From Myxococcota bacterium (GTDB lineage: Bacteria; Myxococcota_A; UBA9042; PHBI01; JAWLBL01): a stretch of 52,228 nucleotides of DNA. Both the position numbers and the translations under genes were made by a program. Positions 1 to 21,317 of the stretch are shown in pieces (positions within the stretch are counted from its first letter, which is position 1; each line of letters opens with the position of its first letter). The notes beneath the pieces are model-generated. The model was given only the letters and a program-made list of their open reading frames with translations, was not told the origin of the DNA and did not search any database. The stretch covers positions 1 through 52,228 of the forward strand of contig JAWLBL010000040.1 of the NCBI GenBank assembly GCA_041687695.1. Reading direction: 5' to 3'.

Positions 1-10
1 AATGGTCCGC

Positions 11-1009
11 ATGGCGCGGCCACTGAGAATACGGGGGGCGGGGCTCTGGCACCACGTGATGAACCGTGGGCTGGGTCGGCGTGATGTGTTTCTGGACGAC
101 AAGGATCGACTGGAGTTCCTGGAGCTGGTCGCCGAGGTTCGCGAGCGGTGGGGCGTTCACACTCACGCGATGTGCCTGATGAACAACCACTACCATCTGC
201 TCGTGCAGGACCGGGCCGACAAGCTGGGTCGCGCCATGCGCCACGTCAACGGGGTCTACACTCAGCGCTTCAACGGCCGCCGCGGGATTGACGGGCCGCT
301 GTTCCGCGGGCGGTATCGCTCGCGTGTGGTGCAGCACGAGAGCTATTTCGCGGAGCTGGTCCGGTACATTCACGCGAACCCGGTGAACGCGAAGATGGTG
401 GCGCGAGCCGGTGACTACCGTTGGAGCAGTCACCGCTCGTACCTGTCGGGGGCCACGCCGGAGTGGCTCGAACCCAGCGAGGTCGTTCGCGTCTTCGCGA
501 CCAGGTCAGCCGAGGGCCGGCGCGCGTTCGATGAATTCGTTCACGCGCGCGTCGACGTGAAGGTGCGCGCGGCCATCGAGAAGTGGGGCAAGGAACCGGT
601 TCTGGGCGATGAGGCGTTCAAGGAGGCCTGGCGCAAGCAGCACCGTGACGAGCACCAGGACGGCCGACCCGAAGTGACCTCCGAGCGGCGTTGGCTGGCG
701 GTGCGCTGCCAGGAGGTCATCGAAGAAGTCTGCGCTCACTTCGAGATCGGCGAAGACGTCATCCGCAGCTCGACGCGAGGCAGAAGGAACCTCGCCCGGC
801 AGTCGGCCATCGTCCTCTGCCTCGAGCTGACGGGATGCACAGCTACCGAGATCGCGAAAGCCGTCGCCGCCCGCCCGACGAGCGTTTCAGTCCTTGCTGG
901 CCGCTATCGTCGACAGGCCCAGGATGACGCCGAACTCGCCTCCGCTCTCGCGCGCATCCGAGCCCGCCTCCGCGAGCGACTTACCCCTGCCGACGGCGCT
1001 CAGACGTGA
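11..1009 (+). CDS. REP-associated tyrosine transposase (RAYT/TnpA-REP, HUH Y1 family) with C-terminal DnaA-C-like helix-turn-helix
   Basis: MARPLR N-terminus, HHVMNRG, HUH motif NNHYHLL, LFRGRYRS, catalytic Tyr in YIHANPV, YRWSS; C-terminal EVCAHFEI...LARQSAIVL...TEIAKAV resembles the DnaA C-terminal HTH. Start at ATG 11 preferred over ATG 2. Confidence 0.9.
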   Translation: MARPLRIRGAGLWHHVMNRGLGRRDVFLDDKDRLEFLELVAEVRERWGVHTHAMCLMNNHYHLLVQDRADKLGRAMRHVNGVYTQRFNGRRGIDGPLFRGRYRSRVVQHESYFAELVRYIHANPVNAKMVARAGDYRWSSHRSYLSGATPEWLEPSEVVRVFATRSAEGRRAFDEFVHARVDVKVRAAIEKWGKEPVLGDEAFKEAWRKQHRDEHQDGRPEVTSERRWLAVRCQEVIEEVCAHFEIGEDVIRSSTRGRRNLARQSAIVLCLELTGCTATEIAKAVAARPTSVSVLAGRYRRQAQDDAELASALARIRARLRERLTPADGAQT

Positions 1010-1150
1010 AGTTGTTTGTAAGTTGGGACTTGAGCCCTGAGGTTCTACCCCTGCCGACGGCGCTCAGACGTGAAGTTGTTTGGAGGTTCTACCCCTGCCG
1101 ATGGTGCTCAGACGTGAAGTTGTTTGTAAGTTGGGACTTGACCCCTGAGG
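982..1150. repeat. Three tandem stuttered copies of the transposase 3' end, finishing in the REP-like end motif AGTTGGGACTTGACCCCTG
   Basis: 37-nt unit tacccctgccgacggcgctcagacgtgaagttgtttg starts at 982, 1046 and 1090 (third copy has 2 mismatches); copies 1 and 3 continue taagttgggacttga(g/c)ccctgagg. Confidence 0.9.
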
Positions 1151-1244
1151 CTCGGTAGTGGTGCGGCCGTCGAGCAGCGGAGGTACGCCGACCCTTGAGA
1201 TCCAGGCGGAGAAGAACCGCATCAAGATTCGCTATGGGGACTGA
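1149..1244 (+). pseudogene. Clipped C-terminal tail of a probable polymorphic (Rhs/CDI-type) toxin gene
   Basis: Frame opens right after the repeat end (cccc-tga) with no RBS-supported start and reads GSVVVRPSSSGGTPTLEIQAEKNRIKIRYGD*; RPxSS..PTLEIQ...IKIRY resembles toxin C-termini as I recall them; stop lies 1 nt before the next gene. Confidence 0.55.
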
Positions 1245-1245
1245 C

Positions 1246-1653
1246 GTGACCAAACAGCGCCTTCGGGTTTGGAAGCCTCTCGACGGGATACCGCAGCGTC
1301 TATACTTGGAGGCGTTACACGACGACTACGAGGGGCTTCGGTTCTTGCTGCGAGCGGACGACGCCACACGGCCGGTGCTTCGGCTGACCTTCGAGTCGCC
1401 CGTCGGCTACAGGAACATCAACGAAAGCTACCGGTTGCGGACTTGGGCGTCAGTGCCGGAGATGAAGAATTTGAGCACCCTTCTAACGGTGGAGAACTCC
1501 AAGTGGGTCTCGTGGCTGGTTGATGAATCGGGCGGTGTCCTTCGGACGGAGGCTCTATTCCACTACGCCATCTACACCGAGGAGGACTGCATCGACGTGG
1601 TCACTGAGTTCCCACCGGCAGTCGAGTGGTTGCCGTCGAAGGACGACGGCTGA
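1246..1653 (+). CDS. Small hypothetical protein, probable toxin-immunity protein
   Basis: GTG 1246 with GGGGA upstream (alternative ATG 1234); WKPLDGIPQRLYLEAL...YRNINES...HYAIYTEEDCIDVV resembles proteins found downstream of Rhs toxins; more A/T-rich codons than host genes. Confidence 0.7.
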   Translation: MTKQRLRVWKPLDGIPQRLYLEALHDDYEGLRFLLRADDATRPVLRLTFESPVGYRNINESYRLRTWASVPEMKNLSTLLTVENSKWVSWLVDESGGVLRTEALFHYAIYTEEDCIDVVTEFPPAVEWLPSKDDG

Positions 1654-1691
1654 CGCCCGCCCCGCCGGTCGGCCGCCGTGCTGGACCCCAA

Positions 1692-2142
1692 AGCTCAGGG
1701 GCCACCTCCGTAAAAGTAAAATTGCTCCTGCCGAGTTCTGCCAGATCAGGGGCCACGTCCGCGAAAGATAAATTGCTTCTGCCGAGGAAAGCTCGGCGTG
1801 TTCCAGGGGGCAAGTCAGGTAGAGTCACAACTAACGAAACAACTTGTGAGGGAGCTCAGGGGCCACGTCCGTAAAAGTTAAATTGCTCCTGCCGCGTGAG
1901 AGCTCGGGGGCCACGTCCGTGGGAGCTCAGGGGCCACGTCCGGGAGCTCAGTGCTCGGTGCTCAGGGGCCACGTCCGAAAAGGTTAGTTTGCTCCTGCCG
2001 AGAACAGCTCGGCGTGTCCCAGAGCTCAGAAGCTCAGAAGCTCAGGGAGCTCAGGGGCCACGTCCGTAAAAGTTAAATTGCTCCTGCCTGAGCTCAGGGC
2101 CTGAGCTCAGGGCCCACGTCCGTAAGAGTGAAGTTGCTGCTG
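1692..2142. repeat. Irregular tandem array of REP-like unit (g)agctCAGGGGCCACGTCCGtaaaagttaaattgctcctgcc
   Basis: Core starts at 1696, 1747, 1857, 1905 (short), 1928 (short), 1963, 2052 and 2108, plus agctcag stutters and a degenerate copy of the transposase-end motif at 1804-1845; core matches CAGGGGTCAAGTCC at 12/14. Confidence 0.9.
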
Positions 2143-5611: not shown

Positions 5612-5749
5612 ACCCTACACCCCGCGAGCGTAGTCCCGGACCCCGGATCACCCCACCGAAGCGGTCGCGACGACCGCCGGCGGAGATTCCCTTCCCGCAC
5701 CGCTCGGGCCCCGCTTGACACCTCGCCAGGCGCCGGGCAGTCAGGACCC

Positions 5750-7666
5750 ATGAGCGCACGGCCGGCCAGCTCCTCGATCGTCACGGTTCTCCTCGCCCTG
5801 GCCCTCGCCTGCGGCGGCGCGCCTGGCCCGGCCGACGCCCCCGACGGCGACGCCCCAGCGCTCGACACCCAGGGCGGCGACACCGAAGACGTCCCGGGCG
5901 ACGACGTGCCCCCACCGGACGCCCTCGCCGACGCGCTCGAGGACGTCGCCGACGCGGCGCCTCCCGACGCCGAGCCCGACACCCCGGACACCCTCGGCAC
6001 CCCCGAGCCCGAAGTCGGCTCCGACGTGGCCACCCTCGACGAGACCTCCGACTCCGCCGACGCCGACCCCGGCCCTCCCGAGCCCTGGCGAAGCGCCCTG
6101 TACCCCGAGACGTGGACCCCGGACCACACCGGCCCCGACGGCCGCTTCCTGCACGACTTCTCGTACGCGGGCTGGCGCGGCGGCGCCGACGGCGAGCCCA
6201 TGGTGACGCCGGGCCTCCTCGCCGACGTGACCACCTTCGGCGCCGACCCGACGGGCACCGCAGACTCGACCGCCGCCGTCCAGGCCGCCATCGACGCCGC
6301 CAGCGCGGCCGCGGCACCGGGCGCCCACGGCGTCGTCCACTTCCCCGCGGGCACCTACCACGTGGGAGGCACGCTGAACGTCGCCGCCTCGTGGGTGGTC
6401 CTGCGTGGCGACGGCCCCGACGTCAGCCGCCTCGTCTTCGCCAAGACCGACGGCATGAGCTTCAAGGCCCACCTGCGAATCGGCGTCGTCCCCCAACACG
6501 GCGCCGACCTCCCGCTGGCCCTCGACGCCGCCGCGCGCGACTTCACCGTCGAGGTCTCCGACGCCAGCGCGCTCGCCCCCGGCGACGACGTCGCCCTCGG
6601 CTGGACCATCACCCCCGAGTTCGTCGCCGACCACGGCATGACCGGCACCTGGGCCGCCTTCAACGGCACCTGGCAGCCCTTCTTCCGCCGCACCGTCGTC
6701 GCCGTCGACACCACGGTGGCCCCGCACCGCGTCACCCTCGACGTCCCGCTCCGCTACCCCGCCCTCGTCCGCGACGGCGCCAGCCTCCGCCCCGAGACCG
6801 GCCTCCTCCGCGAGGTCGGCGTCGAGTCGCTCGGCCTCGCCAACGCGGCCAGCTGGGAGGCCGCCTGGGACCTCTCGCAGGTCCACGCCCTCGCCCTCGT
6901 GGGCGTCGCCGACGCCTGGGTCCGGGACGTCGCCTCCTTTCCCTCCCCGCTCGCCCCCGCCTCGGGCCAGGGCGCTGGCGGCCACCTCCTCTCCGGCGGC
7001 CTCATCGTCGCCCACGCCAAGCGCGTCACCGTCGCCGACACCTCCCTCGGCTTCGCCCAGAACCGCGGCACGGGCGGCAACGGCTACCTCTTCGAGGTCC
7101 GGCAGTCCTCCGAGGTCCTCTTCCGCGACTGCGACGCCCGCGCCGGCCGCCACAACTTCATCCAGAACTGGGGGTTCGGCACCAGCGGCGTCGTCTGGCT
7201 CCGCGTCTTCACCGCCGACGGCAAGGCCCTCAACGCCAGCGGCATCGCCGTCACCGGCCTCAGCGAGTTCCACCACTCGCTCGCCATGGCCAACCTCATC
7301 GACTCCTCGGTGCTCGACGACGGCTGGGGCGCCCTCAACCGCAAGGACTACAGCTCCGGCGCCGGCCACACCTCGACCGCCACCGCCTTCTGGAACAGCT
7401 CGGGGAGCGGCCTCATCCGCTCGTACCAATACGGGCACGGTTACGTCATCGGCACCGCCGCCTCCCTCGCGGTCAAGACCGTCCCCGAGCCCCCACTGCC
7501 CGGCCTCACCGAGGAAGAGGCCGCGCTCCTCGACTCCCTCGCCCCCTGGTACGGCGCCGCCCCCGACGACTGGACCGAGGGCCTCGGCCTCGGCCCCGCC
7601 CTCATCCCCCCGTCCCTCTACGAAGACCAGCTCGCCCGCCGCCTCGCCGCCCCCCCCGCGCCCTGA
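5750..7666 (+). CDS. Lipoprotein with pectate-lyase-3-like right-handed beta-helix (probable polysaccharide-active enzyme)
   Basis: Lipobox LALAC, acidic D/P-rich linker, DFSYAGW, DVTTFGADPTGTADSTAAVQAAID, VHFPAGTY, VVLRGDG, GNGY...GRH, PSLYEDQL. Confidence 0.8.
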   Translation: MSARPASSSIVTVLLALALACGGAPGPADAPDGDAPALDTQGGDTEDVPGDDVPPPDALADALEDVADAAPPDAEPDTPDTLGTPEPEVGSDVATLDETSDSADADPGPPEPWRSALYPETWTPDHTGPDGRFLHDFSYAGWRGGADGEPMVTPGLLADVTTFGADPTGTADSTAAVQAAIDAASAAAAPGAHGVVHFPAGTYHVGGTLNVAASWVVLRGDGPDVSRLVFAKTDGMSFKAHLRIGVVPQHGADLPLALDAAARDFTVEVSDASALAPGDDVALGWTITPEFVADHGMTGTWAAFNGTWQPFFRRTVVAVDTTVAPHRVTLDVPLRYPALVRDGASLRPETGLLREVGVESLGLANAASWEAAWDLSQVHALALVGVADAWVRDVASFPSPLAPASGQGAGGHLLSGGLIVAHAKRVTVADTSLGFAQNRGTGGNGYLFEVRQSSEVLFRDCDARAGRHNFIQNWGFGTSGVVWLRVFTADGKALNASGIAVTGLSEFHHSLAMANLIDSSVLDDGWGALNRKDYSSGAGHTSTATAFWNSSGSGLIRSYQYGHGYVIGTAASLAVKTVPEPPLPGLTEEEAALLDSLAPWYGAAPDDWTEGLGLGPALIPPSLYEDQLARRLAAPPAP

Positions 7667-7916: not shown

Positions 7917-7963
7917 GACGGCAAGTGTGGCCACGTCGCCATGATGTGGCTACACTTTCCGTC
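7917..7963. promoter_or_regulatory. 21-bp inverted repeat (probable autoregulatory operator) abutting the AbiEi start codon
   Basis: gacggcaagtgtggccacgtc (7917-7937) versus reverse complement of gatgtggctacactttccgtc (7943-7963): 18/21; TACACT -10-like hexamer at 7951-7956. Confidence 0.7.
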
Positions 7964-8539
7964 ATGTTGCTCGACGCCTTGCCCAACGCCTTCTCCCACA
8001 GCCTGGCCCAGGAGCGCGGTCTGTCGGACCGCCGCCTCAGAGGTCTCGTCGCCGACGGCGCCCTGGAGCGCCTGGGCCATGGCCTTTACCGCAAGGCCGC
8101 TGCTCCCCCGGCTGACCTCGACCGCATCGAGATCGCGCTCCGCGCGCCCGAAGCCACGCTCTGTCTGACCACCGCCCTGTCTCTCCACGATCTGACCGAC
8201 GTCATCCCCTACGAGATCGATGTGGCCCTGCCGCGCTCGCGGCGCCCCCCGAGGGTCGGCGCCCCGGTCCGGTGGCACCGCTTCCAAGAGGACACGTTCC
8301 TCGTCGGCCGCGAGACGATCGAGGTCGATGAGGGCCTGTCCTTGGGCGTCTATGGTGCCGAGCGCAGCGTCATCGACGCCTTCAGGCTCCGCCACCAGGA
8401 GGGCGAAGAGCTCGCGGTCGAGGCGCTTCGGCGCTGGCTCGAGCGGCGTGGCTCGAGGCCAGCAGACCTCCTCGCGATGGCGCGGCGCTTTCCCAAGGTC
8501 GAATCCTCGCTCCTGCAGGCCCTGAGGATCCTGTCATGA
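7964..8539 (+). CDS. Type IV toxin-antitoxin AbiEi-family antitoxin
   Basis: Winged-HTH N-terminus (GALERLGHGLYR), CLTTALSLHDLTDVIP, YGAERSVIDAFRLR, EALRRWL. Confidence 0.85.
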   Translation: MLLDALPNAFSHSLAQERGLSDRRLRGLVADGALERLGHGLYRKAAAPPADLDRIEIALRAPEATLCLTTALSLHDLTDVIPYEIDVALPRSRRPPRVGAPVRWHRFQEDTFLVGRETIEVDEGLSLGVYGAERSVIDAFRLRHQEGEELAVEALRRWLERRGSRPADLLAMARRFPKVESSLLQALRILS

Positions 8540-9251: not shown

Positions 9252-9609
9252 TGGTCGAACGTGGGCGCTCGACGTTGGCGGGCTTTCGATCGGCTGGTCG
9301 ACTACCCATCGTTCGGCCTCTGCGGGTCGAAACCGTGGTGGTCGACCATGCCCAGTCGACCCCGCTGAGCCTGCGAACCCCATGGTCGACCATGCCCGTT
9401 CGACCCCGATGAGCCCTCGAACCCCATGGTCGACCATGCCCGTTCGACCCCGATGAGCCTGCGAACCCCGTGGTCGACCACCCGCGCTTGGGCCTGACGG
9501 GGGTCGAAGCATGGTGGTCGACCCCTCGCTGGATGGGGGGCGAGGGGGGCGCACGATGGTCGACCACCCGTGGGGAGGGTCGGAGGGGGTTCGCGCCGGT
9601 GGGCGACCC
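9252..9609. repeat. About 44-bp-period array of the palindrome TGGTCGACCA with partly variable spacers
   Basis: Palindrome or variant starts at 9252, 9295, 9339, 9383, 9427, 9471, 9515, 9557 and (degenerate) 9600; units 3-5 are nearly identical, units 2 and 6 form a second spacer class. Confidence 0.9.
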
Positions 9610-11237: not shown

Positions 11238-11308
11238 AGGTGTCAGGGTTCGCCATCTCCCAATTAATTCCGGTGGCGCAAAGTGGGAAATGGGGAACCC
11301 TGACACCT
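11238..11308. repeat. REP/REPIN-like hairpin, AGGTGTCAGGGTT family
   Basis: aggtgtcagggttcgccatctccca (11238-11262) and tgggaaatggggaaccctgacacct (11284-11308): 23/25 inverted match; preceded by a ggtgtagg stutter. Confidence 0.9.
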
Positions 11309-11346
11309 CTGGTTTGAAGTCCGCACCGCAAAGGTAGGCACAGCCC

Positions 11347-11679
11347 ATGTCGGAGAATCAACACTGGCAGCGTATGAAGGCGAGGTATGCCGAGTTTCTG
11401 GTCTCGGTTCACCTTTCCTCGCTCGATCCTGATCACGTTCCCGAAGCCCTACGGGAATACATTCCGTTTGCGGCGGTCTGGGGGATCGCAGATGACGTCG
11501 AACGTGACTCGCTCATTGAGCGAGCGCCCGTCGAGGCGAAGGAGGATCTGATTGCGATAGTCGAACGCATCGACGACGAACTGGACAAGTGGCTCGCTGG
11601 CCCAGAGGCTGACAGTCCGACCCCATCGTCCGAGTATGTAGCGTTCTCGGCGATGCGCATGGCAGCCGATTGCATCTGA
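11347..11679 (+). CDS. Small acidic hypothetical protein, immunity-protein-like
   Basis: 110 aa, LDPDHVPEALREYIPFAAVWGIADDVER...WL...EYVAF; A/T-richer codons; sits exactly between two hairpins. Confidence 0.7.
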   Translation: MSENQHWQRMKARYAEFLVSVHLSSLDPDHVPEALREYIPFAAVWGIADDVERDSLIERAPVEAKEDLIAIVERIDDELDKWLAGPEADSPTPSSEYVAFSAMRMAADCI

Positions 11680-11691
11680 CGCGCGGGCCCC

Positions 11692-11786
11692 AGGGGTCAA
11701 GTCCCAACTTGCAAACAACTCGAGTGCAGACGGTTGGTTACGGGAGGTGCATGATGAAGAAGTATGCAAGTTGGGACTTGACCCCT
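11692..11786. repeat. REPIN/MITE-like element made of two inverted copies of the RAYT end motif
   Basis: Perfect 22-bp inverted repeat aggggtcaagtcccaacttgca (11692-11713) / tgcaagttgggacttgacccct (11765-11786); 11691-11720 matches the reverse complement of 1118-1147 at 29/30. Confidence 0.92.
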
Positions 11787-12221: not shown

Positions 12222-12698
12222 GTGGTCATTGTCGTCGTTCAGCACCGCGGTGAATGGCTATGGTTTCGAAGTGACCCCGAGTACTGGATTCTCGACCAAC
12301 GGAAGTGGGTCGCAGCGTTCAGGAGTGCTGGCTTCCAGTTGGCCGATTACGACTTCTCGGAACGCTTTGACATTCCCGTAGTAGACCAGGGGACGGTGGA
12401 CGCGTTTGTTGCTAAGATGGCGTCATTCTCCGTTTCGAAGGCGCAGCTAGCAGCCGATTTCCTCGAGGCTGAGGCCGCAGCCGGAGATTGGTTAGATGTT
12501 GCGGACGCATTGCCGGTGTTGTTCGTGGACTTCGACAACGAGAGACTCTGGTCGCTGGATTCCGAGAGTTCTACATTCGAGGAGTGTGTTCCAGACGGCT
12601 GGCGAGGCGAGTACGAGGACTTCCTGGGTGAAATCCCCATGGAGCAGAGGTACTGGTTCAAGGGTGGTCGGGACCTGTTGAGCCGATTTCTACCGTAG
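12222..12698 (+). CDS. Hypothetical protein, immunity-protein-like
   Basis: GAGGAG RBS, GTG start; WILD...ERFDIPVV...PVLFVDFD...FEECVPDGWRGEYEDF...IP...YW pattern; noticeably A/T-richer than host genes. Confidence 0.75.
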   Translation: MVIVVVQHRGEWLWFRSDPEYWILDQRKWVAAFRSAGFQLADYDFSERFDIPVVDQGTVDAFVAKMASFSVSKAQLAADFLEAEAAAGDWLDVADALPVLFVDFDNERLWSLDSESSTFEECVPDGWRGEYEDFLGEIPMEQRYWFKGGRDLLSRFLP

Positions 12699-14774: not shown

Positions 14775-14884
14775 GGGAGGCTCCTGGGGCGGGGCTGGAG
14801 GACGCGCCGACGATACAGCGTGTCTCCACGGGGCGCCATCCCCCTCAGGGCGCGGTGGCAGGGCCGTTGCTGTTCATGGCGCCG

Positions 14885-15300
14885 GGGTGGCCGGCGCGGT
14901 CCATGGCGCGGGAGTTGCGAGGGTGTCGTGACGATGCTGGCGAAGGTGGCCCTGGAGTGCTCCAGCTTGCTGGAGCCCGGGTACCGGCGGCTTGCCGCCG
15001 GGATCTGGCCGCCAACCCGGCGCAGCAAGCTGCGCCGAATCGTGGCTCCGGCAAGCCGGAGCACTCCGGGAGGGCTCTTGCGAGACCCGGGTGGCCGGCG
15101 CGGTTCATGGCGCCGGCGTTGCGTGGGTGTGGTGACGATGCCGGCGAAGGTGGCCCTGGAGTGCTCCAGCTTGCTGGAGCCCGGGTACCGGCGGCTTGCC
15201 GCCGGGATCTGGCCGCCAACCCGGCGCAGCAAGCTGCGCCGAATCGGGGCTCCGGCAAGCCGGAGCACTCCGGGAGGGCTCGTGCGAGACCCGGGTGGCC
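14885..15300. repeat. Two tandem 204-bp units, each containing a TGGAGTGC...GCACTCC REPIN-like element with four nested hairpins
   Basis: ctggagtgc at 14952 and 15156; internal hairpins gctccagcttgctggagc, cggcggcttgccgccg, cggcgcagcaagctgcgccg, gctccggcaagccggagc; intergenic. Confidence 0.9.
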
Positions 15301-15363
15301 GTTGCGAAGTCCACAGCGCCGGCTTGGCCGGCGCGGTCCAGAGCGTCGCTGGTCACGGGCCGG

Positions 15364-15789
15364 TCAGGAGGTCAGGCGCGCCTCGAGGGTGATGTCGACG
15401 CCCGCGAGGGCCTTCGAGACCGGGCAGTTGGCCTTCGCCTCGTCGGCGATGCGCTGGAACTCGCCGGGGTCGAGGCTCGGGACGTGGGCCTCGCAGACGA
15501 GGTGGCTCTTGGAGATTCGGAAGCCGCCGTCGTGCGGGCCGACGGTCACGTGGGCCGTGACGTCGACGTACTCGGGGTCGTGGCCGGCCTGGCCCAGCGC
15601 CAGCGCCAGCGCCATCGAGAAGCAACCGGCGTGGGCGGCCGCGAGGAGCTCCTCGGGGTTGGTCCCGGGGGCCTCCTCGAAGCGCGACCCGAACGAGTAG
15701 GCGCCCTCGAAGGCGCCGCGGCCGAAGTCCATCCGGCCCCGGCCCTGCTTGGCCCCCTCCCAGCGCGCGTGCGCCTTGCGTGTCGGCAT
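15364..15789 (-). CDS. osmC: OsmC family peroxiredoxin
   Basis: MPTRKAHARWEG, SRFEE.PGTNPEELLAAAHAGCFSMAL, AKANCPVSKAL; GGAGG RBS. Confidence 0.95.
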   Translation of the reverse strand: MPTRKAHARWEGAKQGRGRMDFGRGAFEGAYSFGSRFEEAPGTNPEELLAAAHAGCFSMALALALGQAGHDPEYVDVTAHVTVGPHDGGFRISKSHLVCEAHVPSLDPGEFQRIADEAKANCPVSKALAGVDITLEARLTS

Positions 15790-19347: not shown

Positions 19348-20730
19348 ATGTGCCAGGAATCCAAGCGTGTTTCCTTGTTCGCGGACTTCACCGTCGAGCA
19401 GCTCGAGGAGATGAAGCGAAGCGACCTCGGTGAGCACATCGCCGAGGCGGCCGCGCATCTGGCTGCGGCCGAGGCGCGCGTTCTGAGGATGCTGGCGGTG
19501 TTCGACCGGCGGTACGGGTGGACCGGCGAGGGGGTGCGGTCCTGCGCGCACTGGCTCAGCTGGCGGTGCGGGATTGGCCTCGTCGCCGCGAGGGAGCGGG
19601 TCCGGGTGGCGCGCGCGCTCGAAGACCTGCCGCGCATCGCCGAGGCCTTCGAGGCGGGCGTCATCAGCTACTCGAAGGTGCGCGCTGTGACGCGGGTGGC
19701 GTGTCCGAAGACCGAGGACTACCTCCTGCAGATAGCGAAGACGGGGACGGCGGCGCACGTCGAGAAGCTCGTCCGAGCGCAGCGCAGGGCGGATGCTCGG
19801 GAGGCGAACGAGGCGGCGAACGAGCGGAGCGGGCGGCGGCGGTTGAGCTGGTTCTGGGAGGACGGGGGCTGCCTCGTCATCAAGGCCGTGCTGCCGCCCG
19901 AGGAGGGGGCGCTCTTTCTCGAGGGGCTCGCTTCCGCGGAAGCGCGTCTTCGCGAGGAGCGGGAGGAGCGGGAGGAGCGGGAGGAGCGGGAGGACGCTTC
20001 CGCGGAATCGTCGGGGGTGCCGCCCGAGTCGGCGAAGGCGCGGAAGGCCGATGCCCTGGTCGCGCTCTCCGAGGCTTGGCTCGCCGCGCCCGCGAGCGCC
20101 GAGCGGGCGCTCAAGGGCGCCGAGCGGCATCAGGTGGTCGTGCATGTCGGGCTCCCTGTGCTGCAGGACGACGCGGGCGAGGGCTGCTGCGCGGTGGAGG
20201 ACGGTCCGGCGCTCGCTCCCGAGACCGCGCGGCGCCTGGCCTGCGACGCCTCGGTCATCAAGGTGCTCGAAGACTCGGTGGGGCAGCCGCTGTCGGTCGG
20301 GCGGAAGACGCGCTCCATCCCGCCGGCCATCTCCCGCGCCCTGCGGCTCCGGGATGGCGGTTGTCGCTTCCCGGGCTGCACGAACCGCCGGTACGTGGAT
20401 GGGCACCACATCCAACACTGGAGTCAGGGAGGCGAGACCAGCCTCTTCAACCTGGTGCTCCTCTGTCGGCACCATCACCGGCTGGTCCACGAGGGCGGCT
20501 TCAGCGTGCAACGTGAAGGGGGCGCGGTCGTCTTCCGGCGCCCCGACGGCACCGTCTTGCCCGTTACGCCGCCGCCCCGGGCCCGGCCAGCGGCCGCGCG
20601 CCGCATCGTCGAGTCGAACGCCGCGTTGGGGCTGGTCATGACGCCGAAGACCGCGTATCCAGGCTGGCGCGGCGAGCGCATGGATCTGGGGATGGCGCTC
20701 GATCCGATTCGGGCGCGTAGAGCGGGCTGA
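19348..20730 (+). CDS. DUF222 + HNH endonuclease protein
   Basis: SCAHWLSWRCG, ERVRVARAL, SYSKVRA, RRLACDA, GRKTR, RDGGCRFPGC, HHIQHWSQGGET..NLVLLCRHHHRLVH. Confidence 0.92.
   Translation: MCQESKRVSLFADFTVEQLEEMKRSDLGEHIAEAAAHLAAAEARVLRMLAVFDRRYGWTGEGVRSCAHWLSWRCGIGLVAARERVRVARALEDLPRIAEAFEAGVISYSKVRAVTRVACPKTEDYLLQIAKTGTAAHVEKLVRAQRRADAREANEAANERSGRRRLSWFWEDGGCLVIKAVLPPEEGALFLEGLASAEARLREEREEREEREEREDASAESSGVPPESAKARKADALVALSEAWLAAPASAERALKGAERHQVVVHVGLPVLQDDAGEGCCAVEDGPALAPETARRLACDASVIKVLEDSVGQPLSVGRKTRSIPPAISRALRLRDGGCRFPGCTNRRYVDGHHIQHWSQGGETSLFNLVLLCRHHHRLVHEGGFSVQREGGAVVFRRPDGTVLPVTPPPRARPAAARRIVESNAALGLVMTPKTAYPGWRGERMDLGMALDPIRARRAG
19929..20012. repeat. Two intragenic palindromes flanking (gaggagcgg)x4
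   Basis: Perfect cgcttccgcggaagcg at 19929-19944; near-perfect gacgcttccgcggaatcgtc at 19993-20012; 9-bp repeat between them encodes EER x4. Confidence 0.8.
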
Positions 20731-21031: not shown

Positions 21032-21317
21032 GTCACGAGCCGGTCAGGAGGTCAGGCGCGCCTCGAGGGTGATGTCGACGCCCGCGAGGGCCTTCGAGAC
21101 CGGGCAGTTGGCCTTGGCCGCCTCGGCGATGCGCTGGAACTCGCCGGGATCGAGGCCTGGGACGTGGGCCTCGCAGACGAGGTGGCCGTCCTCCGTGCAG
21201 TCCTGGTGCGAACGGGGTGCCTGACCCGTTCCTTGGGCACCGATGGGCCCCGCTGCAAGCCCCCGGGGTCGCGGCTGGGGCGTTGACTGGCGGCAGGGCC
21301 GGGGTAGGGTGCGCCGC
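21032..21317 (-). pseudogene. osmC: Internally deleted second copy of osmC including upstream region
   Basis: 21032-21186 closely matches 15352-15506; 21189-21259 matches 15796-15868, with weaker similarity to about 21317/15928; about 290 bp including the start codon are missing. Confidence 0.9.

Follow-up and report, generated by a model that had tools for sequence, protein, structure and literature searches.

Clipped toxin tails with probable immunity genes at TIRYT repeat tips in a Myxococcota genome

Introduction

TIRYTs, or TIRtrons, combine a Y1 transposase that has a C-terminal DnaA-like helix-turn-helix with non-palindromic inverted repeats ending in a GGGG-type sequence; the repeats occur as dimers and clusters, and several enzymes, each with its own repeat, may be present in one genome, all of which also applies to the genome described here. 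As far as the accessible parts of the sources go, the elements were defined by Di Nocera et al. 2013 (PMC3733652) and correspond to the TnpA-REP subclass 2.1.2 (Quentin et al. 2018, PMC6006769) and to group 1 of the RAYTs (Bertels et al. 2017, PMC5581495), which is the largest RAYT group but is little studied, the accessible literature giving neither a function nor biochemistry for it. In the same texts, within those parts, the elements are described without cargo, gene capture or immunity genes, whereas here their repeat tips are joined to the remains of three clipped toxin families. Related RAYTs, according to the available portions of two studies, cut single-stranded DNA at C|T, at most 400 nt from the repeat, and rejoin it (PMC3333891, PMC8266576). 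Subclass 2.1 TnpA-REPs have been linked to prochlorosin genes, with the causality left open in the portion available of Laurenceau et al. (bioRxiv 10.1101/2020.03.09.984088); there, as here, whole transposases and C-terminal stumps lie amid small variable genes.

The rAID-1 clusters of the Bacteroidales combine a recombinase of the XerD family with as many as 31 co-directional genes (Ross et al., bioRxiv 10.1101/471110, accessible part). Judged from that part, they share with the present locus a recombinase-type gene followed by low-GC orphan immunity genes, repeated intergenic motifs and diverse donors. In contrast, the enzyme here is an HUH Y1 transposase with no XerD, the clusters are small, scattered and of mixed orientation, the protection is putative, and behind the single gene of the locus come an array of repeats and then host-like genes in the opposite orientation instead of a co-directional array. 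By analogy, the locus would thus work like such an acquired-immunity cluster without being a member of the class.

Classical orphan modules of Rhs and CDI systems consist of a startless C-terminal toxin fragment and an immunity gene, an arrangement also found here; in them, however, the whole toxin domain is kept downstream of the host's own rhs or cdiA gene, ready for recombination, whereas here the domain itself has been cut and the site is beside neither Rhs gene of the host (contigs C16 and C21). Integron cassettes likewise place single foreign genes between repeated sites, and relatives of the gene studied here lie between attC-like sites elsewhere, but cassettes normally lack a fragment of the upstream gene, and neither border of the present locus has an attC-like hairpin. 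A full-text literature search, with most subscription journals and supplements outside its scope, found no link of TIRYT repeats to immunity genes or clipped toxins.

Results

Organization of the locus

The window, meaning the whole analysed stretch of 52,228 nucleotides, is the complete contig C40 of a 7.97-Mb genome (G000; 63 contigs, 99% complete, 73% GC). Its left end is arranged as follows.

2..1009, plus strand: TIRYT (group-1 RAYT) tyrosine transposase of 335 aa, an open frame with Y1_Tnp and Bac_DnaA_C matches
982..1145, plus strand: three tandem copies of the transposase 3′ end with a family A repeat (TIR), the middle one truncated; the last tip, CCCC at 1142-1145, faces the cargo
1146..1151, plus strand: six-base element-side linker, from the tip-flank consensus and homologue alignment
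1152..1244, plus strand: clipped toxin tail, the last 30 codons and stop of a ~90-aa Rhs/CdiA C-terminal domain
1246..1653, plus strand: probable immunity gene of 135 aa, positioned behind the toxin tip in homologues and matching no Pfam or NCBIfam family
1654..1690, plus strand: GC-rich spacer of 37 nt, probably donor-derived
1691..2142, minus strand: family B array of seven copies in one orientation, tips toward the cargo, plus a degenerate A-like end at 1802-1832

A single base of the contig precedes the transposase gene. The protein matches Pfam Y1_Tnp (E 9e-10) and, at its C-terminus, the helix-turn-helix of Bac_DnaA_C (PF08299; E 5e-8, 33.3 bits, above the cut-off), it scores 71.9 bits against NCBIfam REP_Tyr_transpos, below the cut-off of 80, and it has the His63-Tyr-His65 motif and the catalytic Tyr122. 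The repeat on its 3′ side, GGGGTCAA, is one base from the GGGG[AT][CG]A[CG] consensus, and the 5′ side lies beyond the contig end. Several TIRYT genes, intact or broken, are present in the genome, those on contigs C59 and C29 having repeats on both sides. A transposase with such flanking non-palindromic repeats is a TIRYT/TIRtron, a known class.

Repeat families in the genome

Four main TIR families, labelled A to D, were distinguished in the genome, the outward end of a repeat being called its tip. About 126 tips of these non-palindromic repeats are scattered as dimers and clusters, and many dimers are isolated between host genes. Ends of family B flank other TIRYT genes of the genome, and both family B (GGGGCCAC) and family D (GGTGTCAG) deviate from GGGGWSAS. 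The base directly after the tip is T in 110 of 127 copies, and family A and B tips mostly run on as TG(A/G)G past CCCC. Single repeats fold no better than their shuffled versions, while dimers fold. The 18-nt end motif of family A occurs in 28 copies in this genome, with one one-mismatch copy among 350 other genomes; 12 wider TIRYT loci from relatives, sampled from 40 genomes of which the nearest belong only to the same order, contained few tips recognisable with the motif set used. Viral contigs gave nine matches to the family A motif, none near a TIRYT, which were taken as chance, and none to the family B motif.

Genome-wide, DNA of low GC content (≤63%) adjoins 25 of 79 outward tips compared with 2% of random windows. 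Family C departs from this pattern (1/19), its dimers standing alone between ordinary host genes. Genes of toxin-antitoxin type (Phd/PIN, YhcG) adjoin other tips. On contig C29 (L128, 106600-110450), single genes alternate with two TIRYT stumps that have family B ends, are internally deleted and are nearly identical to each other, and this is the clearest cassette-like array of the genome; on contig C38 (L130, 56700-61500), facing tips enclose 3.7 kb of low-GC DNA with genes for a Shedu-like nuclease and a SAM-domain protein.

The junctions at 1142-2142

The cargo between the two repeat groups is a piece of about 540 bp with 62% GC against 73% in the genome, which supports its foreign origin. 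Its left and right repeats belong to different families, A and B, and as both tips point at the cargo, it lies outside the elements. The right-hand array, initially annotated as outward-facing and about 40 nt after the gene, starts 37 nt after the stop codon, and its tips face the cargo; its GGGG tip is at 1698-1701, and the first copy is the variant CCACCTCC.

The tail frame, GSVVVRPSSSGGTPTLEIQAEKNRIKIRYGD, occupies 1149-1241 and is followed by the stop codon TGA (1242-1244), one base (1245) and the GTG of the 135-aa gene at 1246, in agreement with the initial annotation of a startless frame that stops 1 nt before that gene. The frame has no start codon since an in-frame TGA at 1146-1148 precedes it. 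Because most repeat copies continue as TG(A/G)G, this TGA and the first Gly codon are attributable to the element flank, and because the TGA is in frame with the toxin, the linker is not intact donor sequence. An alignment with five homologues places the beginning of the toxin-like DNA at about 1152, leaving 30 codons, with a boundary uncertain by about 3 nt. CCCC is accordingly not the end of the repeat. Microhomology at the junction was suggested by a resemblance seen by eye and was rejected, as no more than 2 of 29 homologues had their top score at the break.

A Shine-Dalgarno-like GGGGA at 1236-1240, read from the sequence, lies inside the tail and would serve the 135-aa gene, and no promoter or terminator consensus was found at 950-2200. 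The spacer has no match in the 3′ flanks of three homologues. Within it, 22 bases (1656-1677) are identical to DNA downstream of a Tox-SHH immunity gene in another genome (G102, locus L165), a likeness that may be due to chance, a second copy in the same genome having no such context.

Identity of the clipped toxin

The peptide at 1149-1241 aligns to the last 29 residues of a complete 1,951-aa Rhs protein (L006) with a score of 103, reached by none of 3,000 shuffles, and with a profile of 28 tip sequences, itself included, it is the only significant match in the genome (E 1e-10). These comparisons bear out the initially noted resemblance to the C-termini of Rhs/CDI toxins and support its identification as the clipped C-terminal tip of such a toxin. 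The set of relatives of the 135-aa gene comprises 68 loci (7 from genomes, 61 from metagenomes), a number that overstates their independence as several are duplicates. The same ~90-aa toxin tip domain is found directly upstream in 47 of the 68: it is essentially complete in 38, the contig start truncates it in five, and it is internally clipped in four, of which two share one sequence and are marginal matches (E about 0.1). The peptide and the 135-aa protein thus have homologues that are adjacent as a whole toxin C-terminus plus downstream gene. Another four loci from 300 genomes comprise one whole domain, one clipped tail without a TIR and two cases without the toxin. Six of 16 long upstream frames scanned contain RHS and one contains haemagglutinin repeats, placing the domain at the C-terminus of different delivery scaffolds.

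The toxin domain has no match in Pfam, NCBIfam or PDB sequences, and its Atlas clusters carry no family name; a toxin-immunity pair without a family name is defined here. The model of the toxin domain is compact (pLDDT 94), and the closest fold is the ABD-like domain of animal teneurins, a middling match from which no function follows (Z 7.7, rmsd 2.4, 77 aligned residues, 22% identity); Foldseek returned no match at E 0.001 or better. The teneurin domain sits after the YD shell, a place that matches that of the L006 toxin tip (5664-5933), which, judged from the models, may be its bacterial relative. An RNase label by way of a barnase-like teneurin ABD was rejected, as that domain is called antibiotic-binding-domain-like (PMC5851990) and the only support was the invariant Arg, Glu and Arg residues. 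These invariant residues suggest that the toxin domain is an enzyme. The tail retains all four invariant domain residues (R65, P73, T74 and R87) and has no internal stop.

The initial annotation had the toxin discarded, and an unfiltered profile search indeed found nothing of its first 60 residues in the assembly, from which the sequence to the left of the transposase is absent; both Rhs proteins of the genome terminate in other domains. The true donor is not represented among the relatives, the closest of which are about 75% identical, and each junction is therefore uncertain by about 3 nt.

The probable immunity gene

As the toxin tip lies directly upstream in 47 of the 68 loci, the gene at 1246-1653 is likely the immunity gene of that toxin, as initially proposed, and on the strength of this genomic position it is called its probable immunity gene here. 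No Pfam or NCBIfam family covers it. Its model (pLDDT 93) best resembles an uncharacterised Neisseria protein (Z 7.2) and, as a middling match, PIM7 (8owu_E; Z 6.9, rmsd 6.0, 96 aligned residues), the rmsd being about 6 in both cases; PIM7 is described as an immunity protein in the available part of bioRxiv 10.1101/2021.10.19.465003. Complex prediction of the 135-aa protein with the non-cognate toxin tip from L006 scored 0.57 against 0.00 for the best control, with runs sharing at least 94% of contacts and a partner pLDDT of 90. Of 157 solved pairs 116 attain the mark applied, as do 2 of 215 mismatched ones, and since passes at 0.60 or under comprise only 18 solved pairs along with both mismatches, the predicted complex gives weak support for binding. 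The gene would protect against neighbours delivering this toxin family.

The relatives start within 15 nt of the toxin stop codon in 27 of 33 homologues checked, so the ribosome-binding site is usually contained in the last codons of the toxin, and a toxin tail should accordingly remain after any break that leaves the immunity gene intact.

Recurrence of the tail-plus-gene arrangement

Seventeen segments of 120-4,000 bp are found between facing tips in the genome, two tips on contig C12 having been added by hand. Six of these are small, low in GC and contain a single gene whose stop codon is 0-98 nt from a tip, whereas the other 11 are host-like in GC, multi-gene or gene-free. Different TIR families are present at the two ends of five of the six small pieces, and three of the six, namely this locus, a piece on C12 and the piece at 11307-11693 of the window, open with a proven toxin tail. 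In all three, which represent three toxin families, about 6 nt separate the repeat tip from the beginning of the donor-like DNA outside it. The same anatomy is thus found twice more in one genome with different toxin families, and since one layout is repeated in three families, these repeats likely made the cuts. The piece in the window comprises the following features.

11239..11313, no strand assigned: dimer of family D with a six-base linker, the left border of the piece, tips at 11239 and 11307
11314..11337, plus strand: tail of a Tox-SHH (HNH-type) toxin, seven codons plus the stop, matched to the toxin end in L165
11347..11679, plus strand: probable immunity gene of the Tox-SHH toxin, 110 aa, with a 78% identical relative behind a whole toxin domain
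11693..11785, no strand assigned: dimer of family A from the repeat search, 13 nt past the stop of the 110-aa gene

The Tox-SHH tail matches L165 at 24 of 33 bases from the seventh base after the tip and at one of the six before it, and none of 100,000 shuffles did as well. The relative of the 110-aa gene lies directly behind a complete domain, and in all three homologues scanned the domain upstream of the relatives is Tox-SHH.

The C12 piece consists of a family A tip, six bases, an 18-codon EndoU tail and a MafI gene (NF033691, 44.9 bits, above the cut-off) whose stop codon touches a family D tip. Its tail is identical at 9 of 15 positions to the EndoU end of a Rhizobium CdiA with a MafI gene downstream of it (E 3e-5, 0/5,000 shuffles). 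Both flanks of this mini-element are visible, the far one being the end of an unrelated gene, and EndoU was not found in the genome; simple insertion is therefore excluded there, and DNA was lost or rearranged. Seven MafI-family loci were found outside this genome among 300 genomes; two of the six inspected are behind EndoU-like tips, and no TIR was seen by eye at any of the six. As to the other small pieces, the 120-aa gene of C12 is preceded by a candidate frame of eight codons, upstream of its single relative no toxin is evident, and family scans gave no match for the cargo genes on C29 and C38.

Two genes of the window lie near repeat ends without a toxin tail. The segment 12113-12698 contains a 158-aa gene (at 12222) 109 nt from a family C tip, and in Burkholderia ubonensis a relative is encoded immediately behind a 4,897-aa protein; the gene is probably another orphan immunity gene, judged by this neighbourhood. 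The segment 8719-9194 contains a 147-aa gene directly followed by a fifth type of TIR-like end that points away; one relative of this gene (8719) lies between integron-like sites and a distant one behind a toxin-like frame.

Discussion

Other contexts of the gene family

The gene family goes solo by many routes. Among the 21 loci without the toxin, four are integron-cassette-like with attC-like sites, from which the family appears cassette-prone, and three lie between a different direct repeat, both assignments having been made by eye. Clipped tails without TIRs are found in at least four unrelated contexts among 72 loci (L157, L039, L047/L049 and L021/L022), the last adjoining an IS66-like gene end recognised by eye. 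In another organism (L050), 26 nt separate a relative of the 135-aa gene from the TIR-like tip in front of it, and in L027 the distance is 45 nt; both tips are short motifs recognised by eye, and that of L050 is a 9-mer also given by 48 of 200 shuffles, with a nearby transposase end likewise recognised by eye only. Two side observations concern the same family. In L031, L032 and L034, three loci that differ in host context, the immunity gene is flanked by direct repeats some 24 bases long, which suggests another small mobile unit, and in L027 (300-480 and 860-1000) a stretch of about 80 bases from the end of the host gene upstream recurs downstream of the gene inserted behind the TIR-like tip.

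Origin of the junctions

The segment 1152-1653 is best explained as the end of a foreign toxin gene with its likely immunity gene, and the joint as the likely work of a TIRYT at its own repeat, an explanation whose chances are put at about even. A TIR-ended element would join its tip to a site inside a toxin gene, and the toxin side would then be lost by a one-sided deletion; alternatively, the element would move on with the downstream DNA up to another TIR tip and land in a TIR cluster. Selection would keep those pieces that retain the whole immunity gene and the ribosome-binding site in the last codons of the toxin, and the tail would be a scar without a start codon. The gain of an immunity gene would thereby be a by-product of TIRYT cutting and joining together with selection, not the output of a programmed cassette machine, a reading favoured because the tips point at the cargo, five of the six small pieces have mixed families and family C dimers stand alone. 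Several points count against it: the apparent joints are 6 nt beyond C|T and not at it, a biochemical test of any TIRYT was not found in the accessible parts of the TIRYT literature, clipped tails also precede the same gene family where there are no TIRs, and the immunity-like gene at 12222 has no toxin tail.

In the initial annotation a piece of roughly 550 bp was cut from a foreign toxin-immunity locus and captured. The foreign origin holds; excision and capture as a cassette are a proposal, and an element insertion into a toxin gene with loss of the flank would leave the same footprint. Programmed capture, the main alternative, in which TIRYTs would excise gene-sized foreign pieces and paste them between facing tips as exchangeable, integron-like but HUH-driven cassettes, is regarded as rather unlikely, although it would readily account for the six small single-gene pieces ending close to facing tips, for the toxin tails that open half of them and for pieces from unrelated donors lying side by side (on C12 and at 11.2-12.7 kb of the window). 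Trimming alone would hardly produce arrays in which unrelated single genes sit between TIR dimers, and this favours such capture, as do the four loci with attC-like sites and the tips near the gene relatives in L050 and L027, although shuffles often equal the L050 motif. On the other hand, exchangeable cassettes are difficult to reconcile with mixed families at the ends of five of the six pieces, cargo outside the elements, clipped tails without TIRs, no common orientation, no promoter consensus found and 11 facing-tip segments that do not look like cassettes at all. The two further tail-plus-gene pieces at tips make the case stronger than it was initially; clipped tails are also found where there are no such repeats.

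Somewhat less probable still is the decay of an orphan toxin-immunity module by some other process, with TIR elements settling later on both sides of it in the nearest non-essential DNA, foreign islands being tolerant of insertions. The TIR-free clipped tails and the general preference of tips for low-GC DNA agree with this, and any intergenic insertion ends near gene ends; in all three proven cases, however, the toxin homology ends a few bases from the element flank with no unrelated filler, and a later insertion should leave more of the toxin on the far side, of which there is none on C12 or elsewhere. Continued production of the tail through read-through from the transposase, forming with the downstream protein a small toxin-antitoxin pair that stabilises the element, is very improbable: its invariant residues and open frame have been kept, but an in-frame TGA lies upstream, there is no start, two thirds of the compact predicted domain are gone, and the other two tails have only 18 and seven codons. 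The least probable origin, by a narrow step, is a chimeric join caused by repeats in the draft assembly; several of the 63 contigs do end in TIR clusters, whereas the junction is in unique sequence outside the repeat, TIRs border the piece at either end with host genes farther out, and the same layout is found for three toxin families on two contigs.

By itself, a single orphan immunity gene that bears the scar of a toxin would be ordinary. Clipped toxin tails are useful since they mark the exact place of a foreign-DNA cut, and the three marks about 6 nt outside a tip amount to a concrete cleavage-site prediction. If the preferred explanation by TIRYT cutting and joining is true, TIRYT repeats are a route to immunity against toxins that the bacteria do not make. 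A much broader and doubtful proposal is that group-1 RAYTs are a general capture machine that cuts at a fixed distance from its tips and collects the antitoxin genes of rivals as an HUH counterpart of integrons and rAID; should it hold, the largest RAYT group would gain its missing host function.

Other features of the window

At 7925-8539, an AbiEi-like antitoxin gene has a downstream partner apparently cut after a few codons, and at 9339-9497 a 44-base unit that contains palindromes is repeated in tandem three to four times. A tandem duplication of 204 bases is found at 14882-15289, and a DUF222-HNH gene at 19348-20730. The end of an OsmC-like gene, a 155-base piece at 15352-15506, is duplicated at 21032-21186, 5.7 kb away, with 95% identity.
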